A DNA stretch of 64,000 nt from Verrucomicrobiota bacterium (GTDB lineage Bacteria > Verrucomicrobiota > Verrucomicrobiia > Limisphaerales > AAA164-E04), in assembly GCA_047947115.1 (NCBI GenBank), contig CP170459.1:1216001-1280000 (forward strand), given 5' to 3'. The notes beneath the pieces were generated by a model. The model saw only the letters and a list, made by a program, of their open reading frames with translations, searched no databases and was not told the origin of the DNA. The translations under genes and the position numbers were made by a program. The first letter of the stretch is position 1. Every line of letters begins with the position of its first letter. Positions 4,628-47,497 of the stretch are shown here, piece by piece.

Positions 4628-4676
4628 TTCAAATGAGAAATTTTTGAAAATTTTTGACCCCTGATGTCAAAAAAAT

Positions 4677-6024
4677 GGTTCTTCGACAATTCCAGTGGAA
4701 TTAAATTAAGCCGGGATTCTGAGTTTGCCGGCTACAAAGTAAAGCATAGTGATCATGTATACGGATGAGCTAAAACCTCTGGCCTTCCGCTTGACCGCGC
4801 TGAAAACGCTATTCAATCCTTCCATGAACGCTGTGGTCAGTTTCTTTTTCCAATGAGCAAGTATACCTTCCAAGTGACGTTCAATACTGTTTGCCACCTT
4901 GATCATTGGTTCCAACAAGTCCCCTGAATTTTTCGCCCTTCGTTTTACCCATCCTATCCATTTGACCATGTTTTTTCGCGCTGTAACCTCATTGCGACTG
5001 CGATAGACTTGTTGGAAATTTAATCGCATCTGGTAGGCGATTCCGGTTACTAAATTCTTCAAATCCAATTCCTCTAGCTGCTGGGTTTGACTCTTGGTTA
5101 GATTGGAGGGATTTTTACGAAATATCCAACGACTTGCTTTGAGCTCCTTTTTGGAATCCTTGTCTCCTTGATTTGCTTCGGCTTTGCGCACTTTATCGAC
5201 TGCGTCATTGACCATGGCCACAGCATGATACTTGTCGAATACAATCTCTGCGTTGCCTAGATTCTCCCTTACTCCCTTTTGATAGGCCGGACTCATATCG
5301 ATGGCAACTTGAGTGATCGCTTTTGGATGTCCGTTGTGCGCATATAACGCATCTGCAAAGCGTTGGAATGTTTCAGCGTCTTTGCCCTCGGTGGCAAAAA
5401 TGACTCGCTTCTCCATCAAATCAGCAAACACCGTCAGGTAATCATGCCCTTTGCGTGCAGACAATTCGTCCGCACCGATCCAAACCACTTCACTCATATC
5501 CAACTTTGAATAAGCTTCGTCGACATGGGCAAAAAGAATGCGCCACATGCGTTGATCACACTCTCCAATCAGTCCTGATGCTTTACTAACTGGCATCTCC
5601 CTCATCAACGCCAATGCAAATCCTTCAAAAGCTTGAGTAAAATGTTTTCCCTTACCCTCCCAGGGGACTTTAACCCGATAGGTTCGGTGACAAGATGGGC
5701 ATTTGCCGCGAGGCACATTGCAGAGAATTTCAGATCGTTTTCCAAATACATCCATATGTCGCCAAGACCTTGTTTCGGTGTGATCGTAACAGGTAATCCC
5801 AGACGATTTGCAGGTCTGATGGGGACAAACTTGTTTCTCCCAGAGTTTGTCAGTTTCAGTAATAACCATGAAAAACTTTTCCGTCTCAGAATCGTAGTCA
5901 ACGCCTCGAACTTTCCAACACTCATCTAGCCCCAGCAATCCATGTATGGTCTTCTCAATATTCATGGAGCCATCATCTCACGATAGTTCCAAATGCTCAA
6001 TTCCACTGTTTTTGTCGAAGAACC
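4677..6024 (-). mobile_element. ISL3-family insertion sequence, apparently intact (1348 bp)
   Basis: 26-bp IRs GGTTCTTCGACAATTCCAGTGGAATT / GGTTCTTCGACAAAAACAGTGGAATT (3 mismatches); 8-bp TSD AAAAAAAT at 4669-4676 and 6025-6032. Confidence 0.95.
4706..5965 (-). CDS. ISL3-family transposase
   Basis: N-terminal zinc finger (CPHQTC, CPSC), VPW, IGADE, IDMSPAY, IVFDKYH, TTAFMEGLNS, KRKARGF. Confidence 0.95.
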   Translation of the reverse strand: MNIEKTIHGLLGLDECWKVRGVDYDSETEKFFMVITETDKLWEKQVCPHQTCKSSGITCYDHTETRSWRHMDVFGKRSEILCNVPRGKCPSCHRTYRVKVPWEGKGKHFTQAFEGFALALMREMPVSKASGLIGECDQRMWRILFAHVDEAYSKLDMSEVVWIGADELSARKGHDYLTVFADLMEKRVIFATEGKDAETFQRFADALYAHNGHPKAITQVAIDMSPAYQKGVRENLGNAEIVFDKYHAVAMVNDAVDKVRKAEANQGDKDSKKELKASRWIFRKNPSNLTKSQTQQLEELDLKNLVTGIAYQMRLNFQQVYRSRNEVTARKNMVKWIGWVKRRAKNSGDLLEPMIKVANSIERHLEGILAHWKKKLTTAFMEGLNSVFSAVKRKARGFSSSVYMITMLYFVAGKLRIPA

Positions 6025-6371
6025 AAAAAAATACGCATTTATGTGTGTGGGATTGTGTTTATCGCCTTGGTGCATCCATGCCACATTCTGATTGATGCCA
6101 AAAAATGCATGTTTATAGACAAAAATGCAACGATTAGAGATTTGTGGAAATTTTTTTGAACTTTTAATTCTCTAAGCTTTCAAAGTTACAATTAACAGAT
6201 GCAAAACACAAATTTGTTAATGATGTTCGTTTTTATGGCATGAGGTTTGCTATTGAATTAGATAAAAAATACCTAAAACCCGACATCTAAAGATCGTTAA
6301 TCAATTGTTCCACTGTAAATAACGTTGTTGAGATAAAAAAATACCACAAGAATATCCAGCCCATTACAAAT

Positions 6372-9300
6372 ATGAGTAACAAAAACTTTTCCTTCTCAAA
6401 GATCAGAGCATACATCTCTGGTATTGGCGTAATTTTTACGTTTTTAATTTGTTTTCTTGTGTATGTGCATTCTCAGGAACGCAACATTGAAGATCTCTTT
6501 CCAGCGGATTTGCCGACCCAGTCACGATTAGTGCGTTCTGGCGATGTAGTGAAGGGGGATTTTCATGCTGTAGGGCACCTGGAGCCCAGCAATGAGGAAA
6601 CGCTCGAATTGGGAATTCTGATCGGAGACGATGAAAGATTGCCTGGTGATATTGTCAGTCGATTGGAGAACTTCATTTCCAAATATCCCGATACAGCTTA
6701 TGGGCCATCTATCCGTAATCAGTTGGCTGCATTTTACAAACGATCTGGCCGATATCAAAGAGCAATGGATCATTGGGCGAGTAGCTGGGCTGCCACTGCA
6801 GATTTACAAACCAGGGAGGGCAAGAAAATCGCAGATGAGGCCGTTGCTCACTTGGCTCATCAGCTTGCAAGTTTGGGAGAAATCGAACTCCTGGAGAGAG
6901 TATTCGCAGAAACAGCCGGGCGAGTCCTGGACACAGATATATTTACTGAACTTTATCTACGATCCTGGGAAAAATACGGCCGGATGAAGCATAAACCTGA
7001 AACATCTTTCCTGTGTGGAGTTGTTGCTTTGGATAAGGTGGCGCATGCCATGAATGCTCAGCATGACCGTGGAAACCTGATGGCCACGCAAGGTAAAGTC
7101 GGAGGGTTTTCTCTGAGTGAATTGCAGGGCCTTTCAGAAGATTTCCAGCTCGGAATGAAAATGGTGTTCATGGAAAGCCCTAATGCGACCTTGATCGTGC
7201 CTTCTGTCATACACATGTCAGTCGGACACTACGCAGCCATTACCGATGTGATTCAAGATGGCTTCCGTGTGGAAGATCCAACCAATGGTCGGTACCGATG
7301 GCTGACTCAGGAGGAGATTCTGGAAGAAGCCAGTGGATTTTTATCGTTCCTGAAGAAGCAGACACAAGAGGCTACCGAACCGTTCGTGCGGGGGAAGGTG
7401 GGCAGATTTTTGGTAAAGGACAAACATTGTGTCCACCTCCCCCCGGCGAAGATCCAGGACAACCTTGTCCAGATGATCAATGCTGTCTTCCAGGAACATC
7501 ACCCAACAGGCATCCATCTAAACCCAAAATAAATAACAGCGGGCGAGGAGGAGAAGATGATGAAAACTGCGACGGTTGTGGACAAGACAGACACCATAAA
7601 GCCTATGGTATGGTTCACTGGCGTGTATCAGAGCCTCACCTGAATTTATGGTTATACGACATTCCGCTATCATATGCTCCTTCCAAAGGGCCAAAAGTGG
7701 AACTTGGGCTCAGCTTTCGGCAGCGAGCTGATGTTGAGTTCGATACTTATTACACTCGATCACACAGCTCTTTTTCTGACCGTTGGCACAGTTCCTGGCA
7801 CGCAGCTGCAGGTGATTGGAACGGAACCGAACACATAGTGTACCAGCCTGAAGGGCGGGTAGCCTTTTACACATTTCCATCTGGCTCCAACACCAGTAAC
7901 GCCAGTTATGTGGATAATGCGGTGCTGAAAAAATTCGTCAGTGCCGGTTATATCTACAAATATGAGCTACATCGTGCTGATGGAAGCATCTTGGTATTTG
8001 GTTTCGATTCAGGTGCTGCTGATGGACTGTATATGACTGAGATGATTGATCCGACAGGTGAGAAATTGACCTTTTCCTACGGCACAACTGATTCAGTCAA
8101 TTACCCCAACCGACTGGATAAAATAACTGATGCGGATGGAAATATCACTACACTTACCTATGCAGTAAGCGGGTATCCAAACCTTGTTTCAAGCGTTACA
8201 GCACCAGGTAGCCGCACGGTCAATTTCTCCTATACAACCTACTACCCCAGTAAAAAATTAACTGGAATTACCGATGTGGAAGGCATCACAAGTACTATCG
8301 CTTACAACTCATCTTCCGGGTATGCAAGCTCACTTGTAACCCCCTATGGAACGACCACATTTACTTACAACAATGTGGTTGCCCAGGACTATGATCGATG
8401 GGTAAAAATCAGTGAACCGGGAGGTTCCGGGCAGTGCTATCAACTTGTTGATTCCAATGCCAGCGGTATGTCTTCTACTTTTCTTACCAGTCAAAAGCCG
8501 GTTGTTTCAGGATCATTATTTGATGTTACAAATCGAGAGGATCACAATACGTTCCATTGGAATCGGCAGCAGTGGGCACAACAAGTATCTGCGGGACGTA
8601 CTACCCCTACGAACTTCGTTTGGTCGACTGATTTCAAGCGAGCTCGAATTCGCCATTGGCTGGTCGATTCAGATGGTCATTTGAACCACTCGTTGAGTCA
8701 CGAACAAGCTCCAAGCCCTAATGGAAGTACGGAAGGTCAGGTTATTTTTTATGATTACGCAGGGAAAAGTTCTTCAGACACATCCCTCATCGGCACTCAG
8801 ATACAGCCGAAAACAGTAGCCTACAAGCTTCCCAATGGAGAGACGTACTATGAAACCTATTCACGTAATTCGATAGGGAAGCCAACGGCTATTACAACCA
8901 CTTACACCTTATCCAATGGAAGTGTTGGCACTCGGACCAAAAATTTCACATATGCCTCAAACGGCATAGATATGCTTACAGAAAGTGATTTTAACGGGAA
9001 TGTTGTCAAGGAATGGACATGGAACAGCAAACACCAACCCCTGTCCTACAAATTGCATCCTGCCAGTGGCGTAACTTACACCAATACCTTCGAATATTAC
9101 ACTTCTGGTAATGGTATCAATCAGCTCTGGAAGATCATTACTCCCGCTGGCCAAACCCATACCTATTCCTATGGCTCTGACAAGCGTGTCACCAGTATCA
9201 ATTACAGTCCTTCTGGAGGAAGCGAGTATTTTTCCTGGCTCAATGGTAATCTACGCACACACGCAGATTTGCGGGGTTTGACCAAGACATTTACCTACGA

Positions 9301-12112
9301 CAAACTCAATCGTGTTACTCAAATTGATTACTCCAGCGGCGGATCTGAAAAGTTTTACTATACGACTGATGGTACGACAACCGGTTCCAAATGGCTTGAC
9401 CTCACCCGTTATGAAGACAGATTGGGCAAGGTCTGGAAATACGCATACAATGGTATAAGACAAAAAACGTCAGAAACTAATCCGTTAAATCGTACATGGA
9501 CTTATGGGTATTGTGGTTGCGGGGCCTTAGACTCCGTAACAGATCCATTGAGCAACACCACAAGCTATACTTACGACTATCAGGGGAACCGTACTGGAGT
9601 CGTTCATCCAGGCAGTGGGGGTAGCATCACTTTTGCGTATGATGCATTGGGCCAAATGACGAGTCGAACCGATGGTCTTGGCACACATTCCTACGAATAT
9701 AATAACCAGGGATTGCTGATAAAAGTCAAAGACAACTCAAGCAATGTCCTTAAAACATTGTTCTATGACAAAGACGATGACATCACCTCTGCTACTGATG
9801 AAAATGGGGTGACCACGACACAAGTATATGACTGGATAGGGCGTATCACAAGCCGCACCTACCCAACTGGAGGTGGTAGCGAAAGCTATGCTTACTCGGC
9901 TAAAGGTCTGACCAGTTATACGAATCCATTAGCCAAAACCTGGTCCTATGCCTATGATGCCGGATTACGCAAGACATCGGAAACAACGCCAAACTCAGAG
10001 ACAGTTTCCTATACCTACAATGGAGCAGGGGATTTGCTGACTATGACCGATGGTCGTAGCAAGGTAACCACTTGGACTGTTGATACCGAAGGACGTGTTA
10101 CGGGTAAAAAGAATGCGGGACAAACCTTTGACAACATCAAATACTATTACAACAACAATGGTCTATTGACTCAGCGTCGGTTTTATTCGACCTCTACCAG
10201 CTATCTGTCTACCTATTATACCCACGATGATGCAGGCAATCTTACTTTGATTAACTATCCATCCGGAACGACAGATGTGAGTTTCACCTACGACAACGCC
10301 AACAGGTTAACTCAAATGGTGGATGCGTCAGGAACGACATCCTATACCTACACCGCATCGAACCAGCCGTTGACAGAGAACGGGCCCTGGGCCAGTGATA
10401 CCGTCACCTACGCCTATAACTCTTCCAGAAAACGCAGCAGTTTGACAATTGATCAACCTACTGGTTCGTGGACACAATCCTATGGTTATGATGCCAATCA
10501 TAGACTTACATCGATCAACGCCCCGAAGATTAGTGGCACTTCCTTTACTTATGGTTACACCGGACATTCCAATCTGGCATCAACGACACGAAAACATCGC
10601 CAGTTAACCTTCCCGGTATCCTCCAAAATCATTCAAGATTACGATACCAATGCGAGATTGACGTCAACCAAGATGCAAACAAGTGGAAGCTCCACGGTGA
10701 ACAAGCACGATTACGTTTATAACAACGGTAGTCAGCGCACCAAGCAAACCTTCCAGGATGCCTCTTATATTGATTATGGGTATGATAATCTGGGTCAATT
10801 GACCAGTGCCAACCACTCGAACTCCGATCCAGATTACACCTATACTTATGATGCCGGATGGAATCTGGATACTCGAAATTCTGAGAACTTTAATGTAGGA
10901 GATCGTAACGAATTGACCTCCACCCCCTATGGTACACCAAGCTACGATAACAACGGTAATATTACTTCACTGGGAGGCAGTAGCTACTATTACAACGCCG
11001 AGAATCAACTGACAAACATCACTGTATCGGCATCCTGGAAATCGGATTTTGTCTATGATGGGCGAGGACGCAAACGCATCCAGAAAGATTACACATGGAC
11101 TGGTAGCGCTTGGTCAACGCCAACTGAAACTCGATACATCTACGATGGCATGGCTGTGGTGCAAGAACGCAACTCCAGCAACACACCAACTGCTACCTAC
11201 ACCCGGGGATTGGATCTGTCGACGACATTACATGGCGCAGGTGGCATCGGAGGGCTTCTGGCAAAATCAACAGGGTACTCCAGTGGTAATTGGTCGACCC
11301 ATCGATACTATCATAGCGACGGCAGCGGGAATGTGACCTACCTGGCAGATAACACCAGTTCGGCAACACTCAAAGCCAAATACAAATACGATGCTTTCGG
11401 ACGCCTGATCACCTCATCAGGAACAGACGCAGCGTCCAATTTGTATCGTTTCTCAAGCAAAGAACTCCACTCAAACAGCGGACTTTACTACTATGGCTTC
11501 AGGTTCTACGATCCTCAGAATCAACGGTGGTTGAATCGGGATCCTATTGGGGAAGCTGGGGGGATAAACCTGTATGGGTTTGTTTACAACAATCCGACAA
11601 GATATGTAGATCCCTATGGATTGGATTGGACTGATTTCCTACCGCCGTGGATTGATACGGTTGGGGATTATGGAGCTGGGCTTGGTGATGCTCTTTCATT
11701 TTCAATTACAAGAAAAATTCGCGAAGCTAACCCAGATTACTTTAGCGCAGATACCGACTCCAGTGCATACACAGCGGGTGAAGTTACTAGTCTTGCGGTC
11801 GGATCCGGAAGATTGTTGTATGCAGGTTCAGCAAAATGCCTTAGGCTGATTAGAGCCCCTAATCCGCTCGAAAGGGCGCAAAAGATTTCACAAGCTAGAA
11901 ACAAATTGAAAAAAGCTTTTAGATTTGGCGCATTTCCAAATGCTAGAGTTTATCCATGGAAAACCATTCTTCAGAGGTATGATAATAATCCATACTTAAT
12001 AATTGATGCAGCAACTCGAACTTCGCCAATATTTAATATTGGAGGAGGCATTGCAGTTGGAGGATCCTTAGTTAACTATTATCAACCTGAAAACCAAGCA
12101 GAAAGAAATTGA
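6372..12112 (+). pseudogene. C39-peptidase-fused RHS polymorphic toxin gene, split by a 1-bp frameshift at T5 (7338-7342); about 1913 aa if restored
   Basis: ORF 6372..7532 has an N-terminal TM/signal, a helical TPR-like region and C39 motifs (LCG, GHY, EDP). ORF 7298..12112 has YD repeats and the RHS core PIGEAGGINLYGFVYNNPTRYVDPYGL. Adding one T gives continuous EEASGFFIVPEE. Could be a sequencing error rather than a true pseudogene. Confidence 0.8.
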
Positions 12113-12517
12113 ATGAGCTTGTGCTTGATGGATATGGTTAGCGAAGTGTTCGGTTACTCCTTAGATCCTGCTACAGGTAGTCTGACAAAGCGTCGAATAT
12201 CGGATGTTCAAGAATTTGCGAACAAATCATGTGGTTTCGGCTCAATGGTGAAATGTGGTGTCCTGAAACGAGAGGTTGTTCCGGTTGCTTATTGTGAAAA
12301 TGATGGGCTGAAATTAGTTTATATTGCAGGAAATAAATATAATTTTACTGACGGAAACCTGAGAGCGGTGCGCCGGGCTCCGGCACCATTCATCCGCAGT
12401 TTTGTGATTTCAAAGTCATCCGCGGTGCAACTTAAGCTCAGGTATTGGTTTTTTGAGATTCGAGAGTGGCCCGACGATGGAGATATTTTCTCCTTGATAA
12501 TCAGAAATACAGCCTGA
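12113..12517 (+). CDS. Candidate immunity protein for the RHS C-terminal domain
   Basis: Small ORF starting immediately after the RHS stop (TGA-ATG); no recognisable family; positional inference. Confidence 0.55.
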   Translation: MSLCLMDMVSEVFGYSLDPATGSLTKRRISDVQEFANKSCGFGSMVKCGVLKREVVPVAYCENDGLKLVYIAGNKYNFTDGNLRAVRRAPAPFIRSFVISKSSAVQLKLRYWFFEIREWPDDGDIFSLIIRNTA

Positions 12518-12903: not shown

Positions 12904-13251
12904 CTATGACTCCCGACCGTGGAGTGTGACAAAAGGTTCCAATACGGCAATGACCTTGTCTTGTTGAGAGCGTGGCAATCTGGAGGCTACTTCGAAAAGT
13001 TGTCCCATCCTTCCCCCGGCTGTGATGGTTTTCCTGGATCTTGGGTGACCAAGCACTTCCTCGACCGTCACGCCCAGGGCTTCAGCCATTGGAATGAGGT
13101 AGTCCATTTTCCCGATCCGGCCCGAACGCTCCCAATACATGATGCTGGTGTGGTTGGTTCCGACTTGGCGAGCGAGTTCACGCACATTGAGCCCGGCTCG
13201 TTTCCGGAGTCGAGTCAGGTGTGATTCTTGTTCTGGTTTTTTCGGCAGCAT
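12904..13251 (-). CDS. XRE-family helix-turn-helix regulator
   Basis: LTRLRKRAGLNVRELARQVG..YWERSG..MAEALGVTVEEVLG; C-terminal SRLPRSQQDKV helix. Confidence 0.85.
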   Translation of the reverse strand: MLPKKPEQESHLTRLRKRAGLNVRELARQVGTNHTSIMYWERSGRIGKMDYLIPMAEALGVTVEEVLGHPRSRKTITAGGRMGQLFEVASRLPRSQQDKVIAVLEPFVTLHGRES

Positions 13252-13277
13252 GGGTGAATATTATACCAATGAGGTAG

Positions 13278-14306
13278 TGGCCGCCGCCTGAAAAACTGGC
13301 CCAAAACGAGTGAGAAGTTTTGAATAACCAAAACGACTCACAATGAAGCAAAAAAGACATAAGCCAGAAGAAATCATTCGCCTGTTGCGCGAATGCGATA
13401 GCAGCGATCTCAACCAAGAGGCATTTTGCCGACAGAAGCAGATCTCCATTGCCACTCTCCATCGATGGCGCAAAAAGTATGGCCTCATGAGCGAAGCCGA
13501 CGCCAAGCGGTTAAAGGCACTGGAAAAAGAGAATGCCGAGCTCAAAAAAATGTATGCGGAAGCTATGCTCGGGATCAAAGTCCTCAAAGAGACACTCGAA
13601 AAAAAGCTCTAAGCCCCGCTCATCGTCGCGACCTGGCCAAGCAGGTTCATAAGGAGATTGGATGTTCACAGCGGCAAGTTTGCCGCTTCTTTGAACTGAA
13701 CCGATCCACCTTCCGCTATGAAGCCAAATTCCCATCCCCATACCGATGTGTCGTGGAACAAGCCGTCGTCAGGCTCAGTCACGAGTATCCGGAATGGGGG
13801 GCTGAGAAAATCGGACGACTGGTGCGCAACGAGAAGTTGCGTGTCAGCAATGATCGAGTCCGGCAAGTTCGACGCCAAGAGGGGCTGGTCGTTCCTCCAC
13901 CTAAGAAGAAGCAGCGGCGATTGGGGCAATCTACGGGGCGCCATCCTCAAAAGGCATCATATCCAGGACATGTTTGGACATGGGATTTTATCCATGACTG
14001 GACTCTCAAGGGAGGTAGTTGCCGTATCTTGAGTGTCGTTGATGAATACACAAGGCAAGCTCATTGTCTACACGTAGCCCGTCACATAGGTTCAAAGACG
14101 GTTCAAGCACTGATGGAGAAATTGATCGCTGAACACGGCTCGCCCGACTTTATCCGGTCAGATAATGGACCGGAATTCATCGGCCGGTCCTTGAGTCAGT
14201 GGCTCGAAGAACGCGACATTAAAACGCTCTACATCGAACCAGGTAGTCCATGGCAGAATGGGTATGTGGAGAGTTTCCATGACAAGTTCCGAAGGGAATG
14301 CCTGGG
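13278..14306 (+). mobile_element. IS3-family element, 3'-truncated
   Basis: Left end TGGCCGCCGCCTGAAAAACTGGCCCA; orfA/orfB joined by A7G slippery site (13599-13606); integrase core breaks just after FHDKFRRECL; no right IR seen. Confidence 0.85.
13343..13612 (+). CDS. IS3-family transposase OrfA
   Basis: MKQKRHKPEEIIRLLRE..CRQKQISIATLHRWRKKYG..RLKALEKENAELKK. Confidence 0.9.
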   Translation: MKQKRHKPEEIIRLLRECDSSDLNQEAFCRQKQISIATLHRWRKKYGLMSEADAKRLKALEKENAELKKMYAEAMLGIKVLKETLEKKL

Positions 14307-14322
14307 GTGTGAAAAGCTATAA
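13609..14322 (+). pseudogene. IS3-family transposase OrfB (rve/DDE), truncated
   Basis: WTWDF, VVDEYTR, IRSDNGPEF, PGSPWQNGYVESF; lacks the C-terminal YN..RPHSSL region. Confidence 0.85.
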
Positions 14323-14491
14323 AAAGGCACTTCGGTTGGATTCGGATAATTTGGAATCGCTCGAAAGTTTGGCGCATTTCTACGATGCGGTTGAACCAAA
14401 ACCCACGACAGCAAAACGCTATGCCGAAACTTATATTGCTATCGCTGAACGCAGGCTTACCGAAATGAAACGCATAGTCAATGACAGTTGA
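14307..14491 (+). pseudogene. 3' fragment of a TPR-like protein gene
   Basis: YKKALRLDSDNLESLESLAHFY TPR pattern joined directly to the IS3 break. Confidence 0.45.
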
Positions 14492-14499
14492 CAGAACTT

Positions 14500-14989
14500 T
14501 ACTCAATCTGTTTCGTAGGCTCAATTCTTAATCCAAGCACCCTGATTTGTACGCTGCGTTGAAGCCTTTGGTCGAATTGTAAAATCCACTTTCATTCTGC
14601 ACTACATCGATGACGTGGAGTTGCGCCAGATGATTGAGCGACATTTAAACAAAGTCGAAAGCTCTCATCGAATGTCCAGAACAATTTCCATCGGTGGAGG
14701 GCGTGAATTTTACCAAGGCGACAAACAGGACCAGGAGGTATCGGAAGGTTGTAAGCGATTGATAAAAAAATGCGATCATCTGCTGAATTATTTGTTCCTA
14801 TCGCATAAGATTGAGGAACAGAAGGATCCAAATATTCGAAAAGCAATGGAAAGGTCGGTTGCAGTAGGCTTTGTTGTAGCTTGGAGACATAGCAATTTGC
14901 TGGGAGAATACGATTTTTCGGACGAGAAACTGCAGGATTCGGTCGTCATCCAGTTGCCAAACCCTGTTAAAAGAAGGGAGAGTTTGTAG
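14500..14989 (+). pseudogene. Tn3-family transposase C-terminal remnant
   Basis: FILHYIDDVELRQMIERHLNKVE, EGCKRLI, AWRHSNLLGEYDFS; upstream degenerate LFRRLNS..LYAALK..GRIVKS with frameshifts. Confidence 0.8.
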
Positions 14990-40750: not shown

Positions 40751-43700
40751 TTAGGGTTCGACGGTGCGAACGCGGTAGAATCCGGCACCGCTGGAGATGT
40801 CCAGATCAAACGTGAGAGCTGTTTCGTTACCGGTTGCTTTCAGTTCGCTGACCAGTTCCCAGTCCACGAAGTTAGTTGTGACTTCGAGCAGGTAGACCAC
40901 GCCTTCGGTGCCGAACAACGAGAGGGTCGAGCCCTGGATGCCCAGTTTACCGGGTTCAGCCTTGGGAGCGGGTTGGGTCACTTGGATACTCCAGGTGGCC
41001 GCAATGTCTGCGCTTTCATTGCCGGCTGCATCTTTGGCGGCACCGGCCGTGACTCCAAGGCTGATCGTGCCTTCTCCTTCGAATCCGGAGAGGGTGATCA
41101 CTGCTTCGGTGTCCGAGGTTTTCTCTAGGTCAACACCCGCTTTCAAGCTTTCACCGGTCAACACGAGTTGAATGTGGCCTGCGTTGAGATCCGAGAACGT
41201 GCCGCCCTGGACGGTCAACGGTATGCTGATCATTTCTCCCTGGGTTGCCAGGCTGGAGGGATCACCGATTGCCACGGTGGGTCCGGTTTGATCGATCGTT
41301 GCCAAGGGGCTTAACAATGCGGTTTGATCCACATTGCCAGCCTGGTCCGATGCGCTGCCTGCGCTGACTTCGACCTGGAGGGTTCCGTCACCCTGGATGT
41401 TGTTCACCACAATCTGACGTTGGTTTGTGTTGCCTGGAACCGTTTGGACCGAAGCACTGGCCTGGGTGTTTCCAGTGGTGATCAGTCGAATGTGATCATT
41501 GTTCAAGTTGATGTTTTCCGCGCCGTGGTATTGCACGCCATAGATCAACATTCCACCGTTCACATTGACTTCCTGCACATTGAAGAAGGCAACGGTTGGC
41601 GCGGTTTGGTCGATACGGATCCATTCGCTGGAACCGCCCTGATTCTCGTGAATACCAGTCCGGCTGAGTGCTCTGCCGGGGGCTACGTTGACACGGATGG
41701 CTCCATTGCCCTGGATGTTGAAGAGGCGCACCCGGCGTGTGTTCGCGTCAACTTCTAGTAATTCGAACTCAGCGGTCACAGCACCGTCGTATTGAAGGGC
41801 GATGTATTCTTTTCGCAGAACAATCAGGTAAGCGCCATCGTAACGAACGTCTACCAAGGCTTCCGAACCGTTGGTCAATGTTGTGAGTGTGCTGACCGAC
41901 ATGACCGGTGCGCTGTTGTCAATCTGGATGGAACGGCTTTCACCCCCGGAATCAGTAATGCCGAGTTGGTTTTGACCACTTCCGGATTTCACACGCACTG
42001 CGAGGGTGCCTGTTCCGCTGATGCCACTGATAATGATGCGTGGTGTGCTCGAGTTGCCGTCCTCCACAGAAACTGTTCCTGTGGCGGAGCCCGTTTGGAT
42101 CAGCTCCACATCATCCGGACTGAGGGCGACTTTGCTGACTCCCTGATAGGAGAGGGGAATGGTCACCGGTCCCTCCCGAGTCGCGATGGTTGACGGGATT
42201 CCAACGGACAAATTGGGAGCTTCACCCAGAATTTCAAATCCAGCAGAAACGGCTCCTTGATCATTGTTGCCAAGTAAGTCCTGAGCGGAACCCCCGGCTA
42301 TCCGGATATATGGATTCCACATGCCAGTGATGTTGCTCAGTGTCACGGTTGGATTACGCGTCGTGGCATTGGTGATCTGGATGTCGGCTTTGACATTCAG
42401 GCCGCCTTCGACCGTAACCTGACTGGCTTTCAAGTTGACCGCAAAGGCATCGTTGGCATAGGTCACCGGGAAGGAAACCGGGCCATTCAATGTGACCGAA
42501 GCGGATGGGTTGCCGATACTGATGGCGGGGCCGGTGTTGTCCACGGTGAAAGTGGAACTTGTCACACCTGCATCACCATTGCCCAGAGCATCCAAACCAC
42601 GCCCGGCTGCGACCTGTATGGCGAGCGTGCCGTCTCCGGTGATGTTGCTGACCGTTACTTTTGGTGTAGCCGTGGTGCCGCCTGTCATGGTGACCCTTCC
42701 TGTAGCTGTGCCGGTCTTGACCAGTGTGATGTCGGACAGTCTTACGTCGACAGAAGCAGCACCGGCGTATTGCAGATCCACTGTCACAGGACCGTTTCGG
42801 GTTTGTGTGACCGAGGGGTTCGAGCTGGTCACGTTCACCTGTGTGGCCACATCGTTGTCGACGATGGTGGCTGTGAAGGTGTTTTGAGCCCCTAAAACGG
42901 CACCGGGGGCGCTTCCTGCACCAATGGCCAGGGTGAGCTGGAATGTTTCATTCGGCTCGGCCAAGACCAGGTCATCAATGACTGGGAGCAGCACGACTTT
43001 TTTGGAAGTCCCGGCGGGGAAGGTTACCTGCATGGCCGCGTTGTTGAAGTCGCTGCCCGCGGTGGCTCCCTGCAGTGCTGCTACCGAGATGTCGAGCACC
43101 ACCTGGCCGCCGAGACCCTGCGTCCGTTCTATGACTACTTGACGGCTTGCTTCGTCTCCCTCGATCACATTGCCTTGTGCTGTGGCGAAGGCGAATGTGC
43201 CGGACGCATCGTTGTCGAGGATGTTCACCGTGGCGGTGGTTTGAGCCCCGAATTGCGCGTTAGCGGGTGAGCCGGGTTTCAGCGTGAGCTGCAGGTTCAT
43301 GGTTTCGTCCCCTTCAACTGCGGCATCATCCTGAATGATGTTGGCCAGGGAAACCGTCTTGTAGATTTCCGTGTCTGCGAAGGTGACTTCCACGGTATTG
43401 GCCAGGAAGTCTCCATTGGCCGTGGTGGCGGTTCCATCGGTCGGGGTGACAATCAAGGTCACGGTTTGTTGATTGCCGTCTTCACGTTTGATCGTGATGG
43501 AATCAACGCTGATCTTTTGCGCGCCCCCTGATGCGACGGGACCTTCATACTGATTGTAGGTCGCCTTGCTGAAGGAGAACGTTCCGATGCGGTTCTCATT
43601 GGCGAAGACGTCACCCACAGGGGCCTGGTTCACGGCATTCTCCAATCCGTTGCCGGAGTAGGTTGCCTGGAGTTCGTCCGCATCCACTTTGCCGCTTTGC

Positions 43701-46700
43701 ACATTGGCCAGGTCGTCGGTCAATTGGGACTGGGTCACCAACTGTGTCTTGGCGATCTGTTTCACTGCATCGGCCGGATTGTTGCTGTCGGCTGCCTTCT
43801 GTTTCAATTGATTACTGTTTGCAACCGAGTTGGCCCATGCATCGACCACGGTGGCGTCCACTGCGATGTTCAGGCTTTGTTGAAGTGATGCGATCATTGT
43901 CTTCAGAAAATCCGCATCCGTCAGGGTGACGGGTTGATTCAACATCAGACGATTGGCGATATAGCGGTAACCGGCTGCCTGAATAGTGCCCAGTTGATTG
44001 CCTCCACCTGCGGTGTTCAGAATGCGCGTCATGGTGAAGACCGTGTCCTGCACCATGGCGGCTGCCGCAAACACCTGACCGGATGCGCCATCGCCTTGCG
44101 CGGCTGATGCAATCGGATCGTAGGTGTTGATGTTTACGCTGCCTGACAGGTTCAATCCTTGCTTGATGCTGGTTTGTGCCTGGGCGAATGTGAAGGTCGG
44201 GTTGAGGTCCACGATGGCCACGATCAGTGATGAGAGGGGCGTTGCGAGGCTTGCTCCGACCGGTGCCAGGAATTGTCCTTCAAAGGCGAGACCGGTCGAG
44301 ATATCCACACCACCCTGCATGATCAGCACACCTTCCGATGGGTCCAGCACGTTGTTGTTGTTATCGTCATACTGAGACAGATCAATGGCCAGTTGGAAGG
44401 CGCCCTGATTATTGGTGAAGGTGGAAGGTTCACCGTTGTCGTGTTGACCGTTGCGATTCTCATCGAAGAATACCAGCGCTCCGGAGATGTAACCATCCTG
44501 CAACTTGCCGCCCAGAGCAAACAACTTGTTGGTCAGGTCCACATTGTCAGGATCATTGGCATTTGATTTGTCCGCGAAGGTCAAGTCGGTGATGGCCAGT
44601 GATTGGGTCCCGCCTGTGTCCGTGTTGTTCGCGGCGTCCTTTGCGCCTCCGGGTGCAATGGTTAGCACCAGGTCTCCGGTCACGCCACTTGGGAAGGATT
44701 CCAATCGGACAGATGGGTTCAGCGAATCGCCTCCATTGACCGCCAGGGTTCCCAAGTTTGTATTTCCGACCACAGCTGTGATCATTCCTGGGAGCAAATT
44801 CACTTCGGTGGCGCCCTGATATTCCAAGGGCCATTGGATGGCTCGGCTTGCCACGTCGATGTCAGGAACACCGATGGTCAGTGCCGGTGGTGTGTTGTCG
44901 ACGGCCACCGTTGGACTGGTACCTGCCGGGGCCGAGTTTCCTGCTGCATCAAATGCGACATCCGTTGGAATTTCGATGGCCAAGGTGCCGTCTCCACCGG
45001 TGATGGTGATTTCGACAGCATGATCGGTTCCATTAATGTTCAATACCAGTGTTGGATCGAAGGTGACCGAACCGGAAGCCAGCACTTTGATATCATCCAG
45101 ATCCAGCAACACAGCCGATACATTTTCAAACGCAACCGGGAATGATGCCACACCTTTGTTGAGCAGGTTCGGTGTAGGATTGCCGAATACAAGCTGCGGG
45201 TTTGGATTGTTCTGTGGATCGTTTGGATCACCTGGATTTCCCGGGTTATTGGGGTTGTTGGGATCATCCGGAATTTCCGGATCGAGTTCGGGATTTGCTT
45301 CCGAAGCAACGTAGATGACGTCATCGATGGAGAAGATATCACGTTCGCCTGCGGGTTCTCCGTCATAAAGTTCATTGAAAGTGACCCGTTTGATCCAGCA
45401 TGTGGAGTCCTGAAGATCGGGTGCCAGGTAGCCCAGGAACTGCGTGCCACCATCATTCAATGGTCCAGGTACGATGTCCGCCGGGCGGACCTGCATGCTT
45501 CCGTCTGCATGAAGGATTGTCACTTCAATGTCGCGTTTGTTCTCTTCCACGCCCATGACATACATGCCGACTGCAGGAACTGCTTTGTCGAACTCAATGG
45601 CCAGCCCACCGGGTAGGTTTTCGCTGGGCAGCGCTTCCAGGAAATGAAAACCGCCCGGTGTTGTGTTGATACCACGGTCCGAATCGTTGGAACCGTCCAT
45701 GTCCCCGATACCCGGTTCATCGATGCCCGCTGCGTGACCGTTGTTGAAGAGTGTGAATCTCACGGTGTTGTCCGCTCCGTTGTAGGAAACACTGCCAACT
45801 GCATCGCCCGTGGCCATCTCTCCGGATGTTCCGAAGGCGGCTGATGTGTAGGGGCCTCCCGCGTAGGGAGCGCCACTACCTGCGAACAAGTCGCCGGTTC
45901 CATTGACAGGGCTCCATCCGTTGGATCCTTCAAAGGTGATGATGTCAGTGCTGATCCCGAGTGAGGCGAGGTCTGCCAGAAAGTTTGCCTGTTCCGTGGC
46001 TGAGTTTGGATAAGTCCATCCGGCTGCAACCGGATCAGGTTCGCCCCCACCGGGCAAACCGTTGTCGTGTGCGATGTAATCATCGATGGGGCAGTTTGAG
46101 GGTGGCATCTGTTCATCATATTCGCAGATGTGATCGATCCAAAGTTCCTGACCACCTATGATGAATTGGGTGATCGGCGCACCGGTCATGCGCAGTTCGC
46201 CGGTGTCATTGCCCAGGCCCCCGGTCGGAACCGAAAGCATGGCGCCCCCGAGTGTCAGGCCGTCCAGATCGATGAAGTTGGCGACGTTGGCCGCGACGCC
46301 GTTGACGGACAAATTGATGTTGCCTCCGTACTCACCAAACATCACGGAAAGACCCATAGGGGAGGCTCCGGTGGGTGTGAATTCAAGGTTGATGTTGTTG
46401 ACTTCCATTTCATGGCCATAGTAGCCGGCCAGTCCGCCGTTCTCGACTTCCGCAAATCCGCCACTGAAGGCGGATCCGCTGGAAAAGAAAAAGTCGGAGG
46501 CGACAACATCAAAACCGAAACTCCCATCGGCGCTATGAACGGTGAAGGTATCTCCGACATTGTATACACTGCCCAGCGTCAGGTCCTGGAATTCGACGCA
46601 CCCGCTGCAGCAAGCCAGTTCGGGGGCGATGTGCTGGATGCCGATGTTGTCGACGTGAAAGCCGTTGTTGTCCGAGGGGCTTTCGAGATAGACCGTGTCA

Positions 46701-47497
46701 AAGGTGACAATAGGTGCAGCCGAGCTATCCACCGCTTTGCCAATCAGGGTCGGGGGAAATCCATGGTAAAGGCAAACCTCAACCGCTGTGCCGGTGTTTG
46801 AAACACAGATAACGGCGGCGTGGTCGCTCGTGACGCCATCGTCAAAGGGTTTGGGCCAGTTGGCCATCATGCCGTCCGGTTGGAACATGGTCACAATGTC
46901 TCCCGTCTCTGGAACGGCAGGCGGTGTGAAAGCGACAGGGGAAACCTGATTGTCCAGCAGGGGACCCAGATCGAAATCATCCCAGACATTGTCTTCGCGA
47001 CGAATGGAATAATCCCCGCTCTTGGCTCCGGAGCCTTGTTGCCAGTAGCTGACGTCGGCAAGGTAGCCGATATCGTCGGTGAATGTGGCGGTTCCGAAAG
47101 TTTGGTAAGCACCGAAGCGCAGGAAGTTGTATTGTTGGATACCAGGGCTCGTCGGTGTGGCGACATATTTGTAATCCACTTTCACCCTCAACGTTTCCCC
47201 GGGTGCCAGCGTGGTAGAGGGGAATTCGATTTTGATGTTGGTTTGATCCTGTGTGCTTTCGTAAACGTTTTCGGGCGCTGCCGGATCCAATACCGAGTCT
47301 GTCACCACGGTCCAGTCCGCGATGGTCGAGTGTACGATGTTTGGATTGGATGACTGTGTTCCGACGGTATCCAAGTCAAAATCGACCACCGGAATGACGA
47401 GTTGTGCCATGGCGGGGACACAAGCGGCGATACTGCAAGCGGTCAGGGCGAGGTCTTTCCACCATGACCGGTACTTACGACATATTAGTTTTTTCAT
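40751..47497 (-). CDS. Giant secreted/surface protein with Calx-beta and Ig-like repeats (2248 aa)
   Basis: Signal peptide; Asn/Pro linker; DGYISGALVFFDENRNG motif; two Calx-beta units (EGDETMNLQL..TATVNILDND, EPNETFQLTL..TATIVDND); repeated ..GDGTL.I..D.AGN..DNT.P modules; C-terminal W..FYRV. Confidence 0.85.
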   Translation of the reverse strand: MKKLICRKYRSWWKDLALTACSIAACVPAMAQLVIPVVDFDLDTVGTQSSNPNIVHSTIADWTVVTDSVLDPAAPENVYESTQDQTNIKIEFPSTTLAPGETLRVKVDYKYVATPTSPGIQQYNFLRFGAYQTFGTATFTDDIGYLADVSYWQQGSGAKSGDYSIRREDNVWDDFDLGPLLDNQVSPVAFTPPAVPETGDIVTMFQPDGMMANWPKPFDDGVTSDHAAVICVSNTGTAVEVCLYHGFPPTLIGKAVDSSAAPIVTFDTVYLESPSDNNGFHVDNIGIQHIAPELACCSGCVEFQDLTLGSVYNVGDTFTVHSADGSFGFDVVASDFFFSSGSAFSGGFAEVENGGLAGYYGHEMEVNNINLEFTPTGASPMGLSVMFGEYGGNINLSVNGVAANVANFIDLDGLTLGGAMLSVPTGGLGNDTGELRMTGAPITQFIIGGQELWIDHICEYDEQMPPSNCPIDDYIAHDNGLPGGGEPDPVAAGWTYPNSATEQANFLADLASLGISTDIITFEGSNGWSPVNGTGDLFAGSGAPYAGGPYTSAAFGTSGEMATGDAVGSVSYNGADNTVRFTLFNNGHAAGIDEPGIGDMDGSNDSDRGINTTPGGFHFLEALPSENLPGGLAIEFDKAVPAVGMYVMGVEENKRDIEVTILHADGSMQVRPADIVPGPLNDGGTQFLGYLAPDLQDSTCWIKRVTFNELYDGEPAGERDIFSIDDVIYVASEANPELDPEIPDDPNNPNNPGNPGDPNDPQNNPNPQLVFGNPTPNLLNKGVASFPVAFENVSAVLLDLDDIKVLASGSVTFDPTLVLNINGTDHAVEITITGGDGTLAIEIPTDVAFDAAGNSAPAGTSPTVAVDNTPPALTIGVPDIDVASRAIQWPLEYQGATEVNLLPGMITAVVGNTNLGTLAVNGGDSLNPSVRLESFPSGVTGDLVLTIAPGGAKDAANNTDTGGTQSLAITDLTFADKSNANDPDNVDLTNKLFALGGKLQDGYISGALVFFDENRNGQHDNGEPSTFTNNQGAFQLAIDLSQYDDNNNNVLDPSEGVLIMQGGVDISTGLAFEGQFLAPVGASLATPLSSLIVAIVDLNPTFTFAQAQTSIKQGLNLSGSVNINTYDPIASAAQGDGASGQVFAAAAMVQDTVFTMTRILNTAGGGNQLGTIQAAGYRYIANRLMLNQPVTLTDADFLKTMIASLQQSLNIAVDATVVDAWANSVANSNQLKQKAADSNNPADAVKQIAKTQLVTQSQLTDDLANVQSGKVDADELQATYSGNGLENAVNQAPVGDVFANENRIGTFSFSKATYNQYEGPVASGGAQKISVDSITIKREDGNQQTVTLIVTPTDGTATTANGDFLANTVEVTFADTEIYKTVSLANIIQDDAAVEGDETMNLQLTLKPGSPANAQFGAQTTATVNILDNDASGTFAFATAQGNVIEGDEASRQVVIERTQGLGGQVVLDISVAALQGATAGSDFNNAAMQVTFPAGTSKKVVLLPVIDDLVLAEPNETFQLTLAIGAGSAPGAVLGAQNTFTATIVDNDVATQVNVTSSNPSVTQTRNGPVTVDLQYAGAASVDVRLSDITLVKTGTATGRVTMTGGTTATPKVTVSNITGDGTLAIQVAAGRGLDALGNGDAGVTSSTFTVDNTGPAISIGNPSASVTLNGPVSFPVTYANDAFAVNLKASQVTVEGGLNVKADIQITNATTRNPTVTLSNITGMWNPYIRIAGGSAQDLLGNNDQGAVSAGFEILGEAPNLSVGIPSTIATREGPVTIPLSYQGVSKVALSPDDVELIQTGSATGTVSVEDGNSSTPRIIISGISGTGTLAVRVKSGSGQNQLGITDSGGESRSIQIDNSAPVMSVSTLTTLTNGSEALVDVRYDGAYLIVLRKEYIALQYDGAVTAEFELLEVDANTRRVRLFNIQGNGAIRVNVAPGRALSRTGIHENQGGSSEWIRIDQTAPTVAFFNVQEVNVNGGMLIYGVQYHGAENINLNNDHIRLITTGNTQASASVQTVPGNTNQRQIVVNNIQGDGTLQVEVSAGSASDQAGNVDQTALLSPLATIDQTGPTVAIGDPSSLATQGEMISIPLTVQGGTFSDLNAGHIQLVLTGESLKAGVDLEKTSDTEAVITLSGFEGEGTISLGVTAGAAKDAAGNESADIAATWSIQVTQPAPKAEPGKLGIQGSTLSLFGTEGVVYLLEVTTNFVDWELVSELKATGNETALTFDLDISSGAGFYRVRTVEP

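Follow-up and report, generated by a model that had tools for sequence, protein, structure and literature searches.

A C39 peptidase module and a leader-like motif in an RHS protein of a Verrucomicrobiota bacterium: a predicted self-processing toxin

Polymorphic RHS toxins that are exported by the Sec pathway and the type II secretion system (T2SS) and carry built-in processing peptidases have been reported as a class (PMC3482391). Peptidases of the C39 fold are described from peptidase-containing ATP-binding cassette (ABC) transporters (PCATs), whose substrates bear a leader of the reported consensus L(-12)xxxE(-8)L(-7)xxxxG(-2)G(-1), helical from -10 to -4, which docks in a groove of PCAT1 Ala55 and Ile59 (PMC6959990; PMC6363468) and is cut after Gly, Ala or Ser (PMC6363468). 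Two further reports serve as precedents here, namely the self-cleavage in cis of the C39 protein StbD-CT (bioRxiv 10.64898/2026.05.07.723447) and the active periplasmic C39 peptidase FapD (PMC5557850). In this study, a stretch of 64,000 nucleotides of a Verrucomicrobiota genome (contig CP170459.1 of assembly GCA_047947115.1, positions 1,216,001 to 1,280,000; the whole stretch is referred to as the window) was analysed with regard to a locus at 6372 to 12112, which encodes an RHS protein preceded by a TPR-like region and a C39 domain. A literature search covering full text, with few subscription papers and main articles without supplements, returned no description of an N-terminal C39 domain on an RHS protein; in some databases, such proteins already carry a C39-domain or RHS label. 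The reading that we favour, at a probability of roughly two in three, is that of a single RHS-caged, Sec-exported antibacterial toxin with a swappable tip, in which the C39 domain would cut a leader mimic in cis and thereby shed the TPR-C39 part as a prodomain.

One gene with an N-terminal peptidase module

In the assembly, the locus is divided into two overlapping open reading frames (ORFs) in different frames, 6372-7532 with 386 amino acids and 7298-12112 with 1604 amino acids, which the first-pass annotation of this DNA had joined into a restored protein of 1913 amino acids. Precisely such a protein occurs naturally: the metagenome contig L036 carries a single ORF of this length, followed by the same 134-amino-acid ORF as in the window, and its product is 99.9% identical to that of the window with one gap. 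At 7337-7339, the contigs from all eight sequencing runs examined differ in length by one base and read through in an open frame. Another allele (P0122, 1900 amino acids) is 100% identical over residues 1-322 and 96% identical over the cage, and ends in an unrelated tip. Homologues do not always keep the two ORFs separate, a possibility that the annotation had raised against itself, as six of nine homologous loci in close relatives hold a single ORF, one runs off the contig end and two are split later, within the RHS part. The two ORFs are one gene, which is whole in the wider population, and because the eight runs and L036 read continuously, the split is specific to this assembly or strain; it lies within the final strand of the C39 domain. 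An assembly error and a strain-specific lesion are both compatible with the data. The RNA-run contig of run X15 shows a second one-base difference at 7420.

The C39 domain is recognised by Pfam (Peptidase_C39) on residues 215-330 with 28.1 bits at a cut-off of 22. The evidence for its fold comes from an AlphaFold2 model of the module of a homologue (L019), which is about 29% identical to the window protein and was modelled from a 61-row alignment with a predicted local distance difference test score (pLDDT) of 90 and a predicted template modelling score (pTM) of 0.87; a single-sequence fold of the window's own N-terminal part reached a pLDDT of 41 and was not used. Model residues 155-273 resemble the C39 domain of LahT (6MPZ) with Z 13.2 and a root-mean-square deviation of 2.5 over 117 aligned residues, and the same part gives Z 12.8 and 12.7 to the C39 domains of PCAT1 and ComA. 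The helices at 17-151 of the model are TPR-like (Z 11.1 to the YbgF TPR) and residues 16-155 match TPR proteins, while the TPR-like domain of the window matches profiles of TPR structures with a best E of 9e-11. In a profile alignment the Cys, His and Asp fall on the catalytic residues of LahT and ComA. The module is therefore as first annotated, with a TPR-like region, a C39 fold and the triad Cys215 (FLCG), His286 (GHY) and Asp302 (EDP) in ORF 6372-7532. The triad is intact in 154 of 158 homologue rows below 70% identity, a conservation well above that of its surroundings, and also in 43 of the 44 proteins with the module that were found via the RHS core rather than the peptidase. The domain is likely to be proteolytically active.

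The N-terminus is signal-like by hydropathy, with a peak of 2.2, and 95 of 120 homologues among the matches listed have a hydrophobic stretch at this end; it may be a signal peptide, the alternative being a retained anchor. On the full-length allele P0122, Pfam detected no domains other than those of C39 and RHS, the membrane and ATPase domains of an ABC transporter being absent. The only other Pfam C39 match in the host genome is a stand-alone open frame of 281 codons, not a transporter, in a search that was not exhaustive because it missed the window's own C39 domain. A stand-alone C39-like protein lies at L030 (G000:C1:2514465), by eye beside ATP-grasp-like and GNAT/nitrilase-like ORFs.

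Leader-like motif, cage and tip

Directly after the C39 domain lies the family motif W-x-x-[VL]-x3-E-x3-[VI]-x-G-[KRM]-G, which the first-pass annotation had missed and which gives its idea of self-processing a concrete candidate site. The motif is placed 26 residues past the SG motif of the C39 domain in 132 of 157 proteins. Here 108 of 157 proteins show the full pattern, as opposed to 66 matches in 278,183 residues elsewhere (2.4e-4 per residue). In the register of the PCAT leaders, the 158 rows have Val or Leu at -12 in 135, Glu at -8 in 122, Val or Ile at -4 in 134 and Gly at -2 in 157 cases. The homologue model shows a helix from -10 to -5, with a pLDDT of about 98, and a strand at -3/-2; both lie beyond the C39 domain, whose last model residue is 273. 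Of the features of a double-glycine leader, the hydrophobic -12, Glu -8, hydrophobic -4, Gly -2 and the helix are therefore found, but not Leu -7 and Gly, Ala or Ser at -1. The motif is retained in 143 of 154 triad-bearing rows and eroded in three of the four rows without the Cys. The motif is likely to function as a non-canonical counterpart of a double-glycine leader, and it likely marks a cis cleavage site at which the prodomain would be shed.

The linker that follows is variable in homologues (21-117 amino acids, median 39) and contains at least one Cys in 156 of 157. By eye, at least ten RHS relatives have a signal-like sequence and then the same Cys/Pro linker with no TPR-C39 module (P0131, P0132, P0136, P0150, P0156, P0159, P0166, P0178, P0201, P0205), and in sequence they resemble the predicted cleavage product. 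The cage wall contains CxCG in 128 of 142 full-length homologues, and these cysteines could pair with those of the linker after export. In ORF 7298-12112 the Cys/Pro linker, YD repeats, YCGCG and an RHS core ending in DPYGL are all present, as the first-pass annotation had listed them.

The tip is the variable part of the protein and is replaced by an unrelated one in P0122. The 110 tips that were compared, 109 from the 142 full-length homologues and the window's own, form 92 clusters; the pattern used for the clustering missed 33 homologues. Pfam, applied to 15 chosen proteins, identified Tox-SHH, phage lysozyme, Ntox16, EndoU and Hint on module-bearing members. The RNA-run contigs of X16 and X20 diverge from the window sequence at 11544-11595, and as the end of X16 at 11595 translates like the P0122 junction, alleles with other tips are indicated in estuary samples. 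An atlas lookup of the window's tip led to uncharacterised clusters with a low recognition score. No relatives of the 134-amino-acid ORF were found in 200 other genomes or the protein database, nor any similarity to the genes behind related tips, so that it is by its position that it qualifies as a candidate immunity gene. Taken from sequence, the RHS-caged protein is likely an exported antibacterial toxin, the toxicity of the tip being predicted.

A search of the whole host genome, a single contig of 6.08 Mb that is 96% complete, detected no PAAR, VgrG or TssC; the first-pass annotation had reported the absence of PAAR and VgrG from the window, and this extends to the genome. Among 16 carrier genomes, TssC was found in one, VgrG in three (two above the cut-off) and a secretin in all 16. 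The survey of type VI secretion system (T6SS) co-occurrence that the annotation had suggested thus fits independence from this system, and the C39-RHS protein is not a T6SS effector. A TcB/TcA or SpvB-type Pfam domain was not detected on the protein; the genome was not searched for TcA/TcB.

Proposed maturation and its alternatives

In the course that we propose, the protein would be exported by Sec and lose its signal, whereupon the motif helix would dock in the leader groove of the C39 domain of the same chain and Cys215 would cut at G-K-G, more likely after the Lys than after the next Gly. The cleaved cage would begin at the Cys/Pro linker, like the natural module-less relatives. Within the cage, the tip would be freed by the aspartyl autoprotease of the core, as happens in other RHS proteins, and the cage would cross the outer membrane, perhaps through a secretin. 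The tip would then poison other bacteria, and the downstream protein would protect the maker. The TPR-C39 part would most likely be an intramolecular chaperone or latch that times maturation.

Several observations weigh against this course. Cis cleavage at the motif is something we infer rather than observe, and docking in the C39 active site was read from secondary structure and confidence rather than coordinates, in a model of a homologue that is about 29% identical to the window protein. Position -7 is not Leu but Ala, Gly, Thr or Ser in 138 of 158 rows; in favour of the proposed course, however, the groove position facing it (Cys+34), which is Ala in PCATs and pairs there with Leu-7, is Leu, Met, Ile or Val in 142 of 158, and in sequence the pair looks like a reciprocal size swap relative to PCATs. 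Position -1 (P1) is Lys, Arg or Met in 150 of 158 rows. The Gln six residues before the catalytic Cys, whose role in oxyanion stabilisation is doubted in the LahT work (PMC6363468), is Pro in 194 and Gln in one of 209 rows. Full-length members without the catalytic Cys exist (L013, L014, L016 and P0222; by eye also L015), and the four Cys-less rows amount to about three independent losses, with P0222 among them retaining the motif. On the side of the toxin, the window's tip of 163 amino acids has a few relatives, but neither it nor the downstream ORF belongs to a known family, and one subclade has a large secreted protein directly downstream and no small immunity gene. Secretins are probably common in the phylum anyway, and the count of 16 of 16 covers carriers only.

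Lys or Arg at P1 together with the lost oxyanion Gln means that the motif could be an uncut plug, which would hold the C39 peptidase off until delivery and then release it to cut another protein in trans, be it a partner adhesin, an envelope protein or a protein of the target cell. The non-canonical P1, Met included, fits this, as do the reported action in trans of C39 in FapD and, as a toxin, in StbD and Cpe1, and the many family loci that adjoin large secreted proteins. However, -2 is Gly in almost every row and +1 is a small residue, which matches the needs of a scissile site; the C39 domain is N-terminal, where processing peptidases are reported to be placed (PMC3482391), module-less relatives begin just after the motif site, and the window's locus has no abutting partner gene. 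We consider a plug unlikely, though with a chance that deserves to be kept in mind.

It is very unlikely that the C39 domain lacks catalytic activity and serves as a peptide-binding chaperone or anchor, comparable to the C39-like domain of HlyB or the inactive transglutaminase domains before some RHS toxins. The loss of the oxyanion Gln and the Cys-less full-length members would agree with it, and papain-fold domains without activity have been described between the signal peptide and the RHS repeats (PMC3482391), but 154 of 158 divergent rows retain the complete catalytic triad. Ranking just behind it, and likewise very improbable, is a self-cleaving surface adhesin or signalling cage with a non-toxic tip at the window locus. 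The tip and downstream ORF without family match, the subclade without a small downstream gene and the Ig, TSP3, LamG and MAM proteins beside related loci would suit such a function, whereas alleles with 96% identity over the cage carry exchanged tips, the hypervariable tips include nucleases and lysozyme, and the small ORF begins at the base after the stop codon. Two separate genes or a programmed frameshift have almost no probability left, for although the ORFs are separate in this assembly and the upstream insertion difference makes a strain-specific lesion possible, the continuous reading in eight of eight runs, L036 and P0122 speaks against them, as does a break inside the last C39 strand. 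The favoured course, with export, cis cleavage and release of a toxic tip, is retained below; the features on which it draws are collected in Table 1.

Table 1. Features of the C39-RHS locus and its upstream insertion (positions within the window)
Feature	Position	Strand	Remarks
ISL3 insertion	4668..6023	-	348 bp upstream of start codon; strain-specific
Signal-peptide-like N-terminus	6372..6473	+	basic n-region, hydrophobic 13-33, possible V-H-S/Q peptidase site
TPR-like helical domain	6579..6995	+	boundaries approximate
C39 cysteine peptidase domain	6996..7361	+	last strand crosses frame break
Predicted catalytic triad of C39	Cys215 7014-7016; His286 7227-7229; Asp302 7275-7277	+	
Frame break	7337..7339	+	beside T run; present only in this assembly or strain
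Double-glycine-leader-like motif	7370..7420	+	V-12, E-8, G-7, I-4, G-2, K-1, G+1
Predicted cis cleavage site	near 7417-7420	+	G-K-G in leader-like motif
Cys/Pro/Gly-rich variable linker	7421..7606	+	new N-terminus if cleaved
YD/RHS repeat cage and core	7607..11620	+	CxCG (YCGCG) 9509-9523; core TIGR03696, ends DPYGL
Autoprotease-motif aspartates	11540-11542, 11609-11611	+	both present in RHS core
Polymorphic C-terminal domain	11621..12112	+	163 amino acids, first ~60 common to other tips
134-amino-acid ORF	12113..12517	+	starts right after stop codon; candidate immunity gene

Relatives, surroundings and comparison with known systems

The N-terminal module was found in six of 40 related genomes and nine of 300 genomes of the phylum, and the protein search gave 154 matches among 7998 scored candidates, of which 120 are listed. 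Among 51 named genome loci, 44 have the whole module with Cys, His and Asp, three a split module and four no module. By record titles, most of them of metagenome-assembled genomes, the carriers are mostly Verrucomicrobiota and span at least six phyla (Verrucomicrobiota, Bacteroidota, Acidobacteriota, Fibrobacterota, Pseudomonadota and Hydrogenedentota); the labels Bifidobacteriaceae and Patescibacteria probably reflect misbinning and were left out of this count. Rhizobium sp. BK376 and Ciceribacter sichuanensis S101 are cultured carriers.

Many relatives have an immunoglobulin-like (Ig; Glucodextranase-B-like) insert near the C-terminal end of the cage, seemingly without its first strand, and the upstream secreted protein in such relatives ends in a D..PP.I.L..P-like strand (loci L011, L013, L014, L016, L022-L025, L028 and L054-L057). 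Over 36 full-length loci, nine have both insert and strand, 23 neither, two only the insert and two only the strand, a count that leaves out seven of 43 loci without upstream DNA and in which kin are not independent; by eye, the four discordant loci look like divergent cases of both. This suggests donor-strand tethering in the relatives. The window's gene has neither the Ig insert nor the upstream terminal-strand motif. Ig, TSP3, LamG and MAM proteins are neighbours in related loci, and in one subclade (L039, L041, L042, L046-L049, L053, L058, L066) the downstream gene begins with a YD..GN-like motif and mostly encodes 870-2500 amino acids, two of these genes being short or cut off.

It is possible, but at this stage doubtful, that the family as a whole represents needle-free RHS delivery across at least six phyla, with a size-swapped groove, a cut after a basic residue, a cage unlatched after export and, in many relatives, tethering by a neighbouring secreted protein whose terminal beta-strand would complete the Ig domain in the cage wall. 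Little is understood of how RHS cages mature and open when no T6SS or Tc needle is involved; for this question the family offers an enzyme, a site and two point mutants. If the reading is true, it adds a C39 peptidase that is fused to its substrate and has shifted its P1 preference, and it points to a way in which environmental bacteria that lack T6SS, according to record titles mostly Verrucomicrobiota, could compete.

The ISL3 element upstream of the gene, of which the host genome has about ten near-full copies, is skipped by the contigs of all four runs examined across the insertion and by L036, so that the host genome may be a distinct strain. One contig of run X1 links the ISL3 end to 7524 with a 23-letter side, possibly an insertion inside the gene in a subpopulation. 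No sigma-70-type promoter match was found in 6024-6400; RNA-run contigs span much of the gene, and such contigs cannot show transcription. DNA near-identical to the window is present in seawater, marsh, estuary and freshwater runs. Beyond the locus, 12904-14989 contains an XRE-family helix-turn-helix gene, an IS3 element and a Tn3 transposase fragment, and the GC content at 6001-12000 is mostly 40-47% (one bin 49%) compared with 51% genome-wide; the region looks like an accessory island. An ORF of 2248 amino acids lies at 40751-47497 on the minus strand. Elsewhere in the genome, a second full RHS protein (G000:C1, about 1014000-1019500), an open frame of 1823 codons with a signal-like start, lacks C39, and there are two orphan RHS cores (G000:C1 776700 and 1566300).

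With the Sec-exported polymorphic RHS toxins, the window protein shares a start that resembles a signal peptide, the RHS repeats, the variable tip, the abutting small gene and an N-terminal or internal peptidase of the kind proposed to serve self-processing (PMC3482391). The processing peptidases named in the portion of that survey available to us are, however, caspase, HINT, MCF1-SHE, subtilisin and ZU5, and within the same portion C39 appears only as a toxin tip (Tox-PL-C39) and the N-terminal papain fold as an inactive transglutaminase. With the C39 domains of PCATs, also known as ABC transporter maturation and secretion (AMS) proteins, such as LahT, PCAT1 and ComA, it shares the fold, the Cys-His-Asp triad, the reported leader determinants at -12/-8/-4/-2 and the two-turn helix. 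In contrast to them, it lacks an ABC transporter, has the enzyme and, C-terminal to it, the mimic on a single chain, and possesses a C39 domain that is likely extracytoplasmic; its family has the size-reversed pair at -7, Lys, Arg or Met at P1 and no oxyanion Gln.

StbD-CT and Cpe1 (PMC12136450) also have C39 in an interbacterial toxin, and StbD-CT is reported to cut itself in cis at a Gly-Gly linker. In the available accounts, their C39 is a C-terminal poison delivered by contact-dependent inhibition (CDI) or T6SS that cuts on its own N-terminal side, whereas the window protein carries it as a constant module at the N-terminus, in front of an RHS cage. FapD, a Sec-exported C39 peptidase whose catalytic Cys is needed for secretion, would resemble this module in being exported, but it is described as a stand-alone enzyme that acts in trans in amyloid export, with an unclear substrate (PMC5557850). 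The T6SS effectors of the RhsA or cocoon type share the RHS cage, the aspartyl autoprotease core and an N-terminal cleavage near the plug; RhsA uses PAAR/VgrG and the catalyst of its N-terminal cleavage is stated to be unknown (PMC8765631), while the window protein has a signal-like sequence and a dedicated peptidase. The protein thus belongs both to the RHS polymorphic proteins and to the C39 fold family and is neither a PCAT nor a T6SS effector; as a C39 version, it would represent an undescribed variant of the Sec-exported polymorphic RHS toxins.

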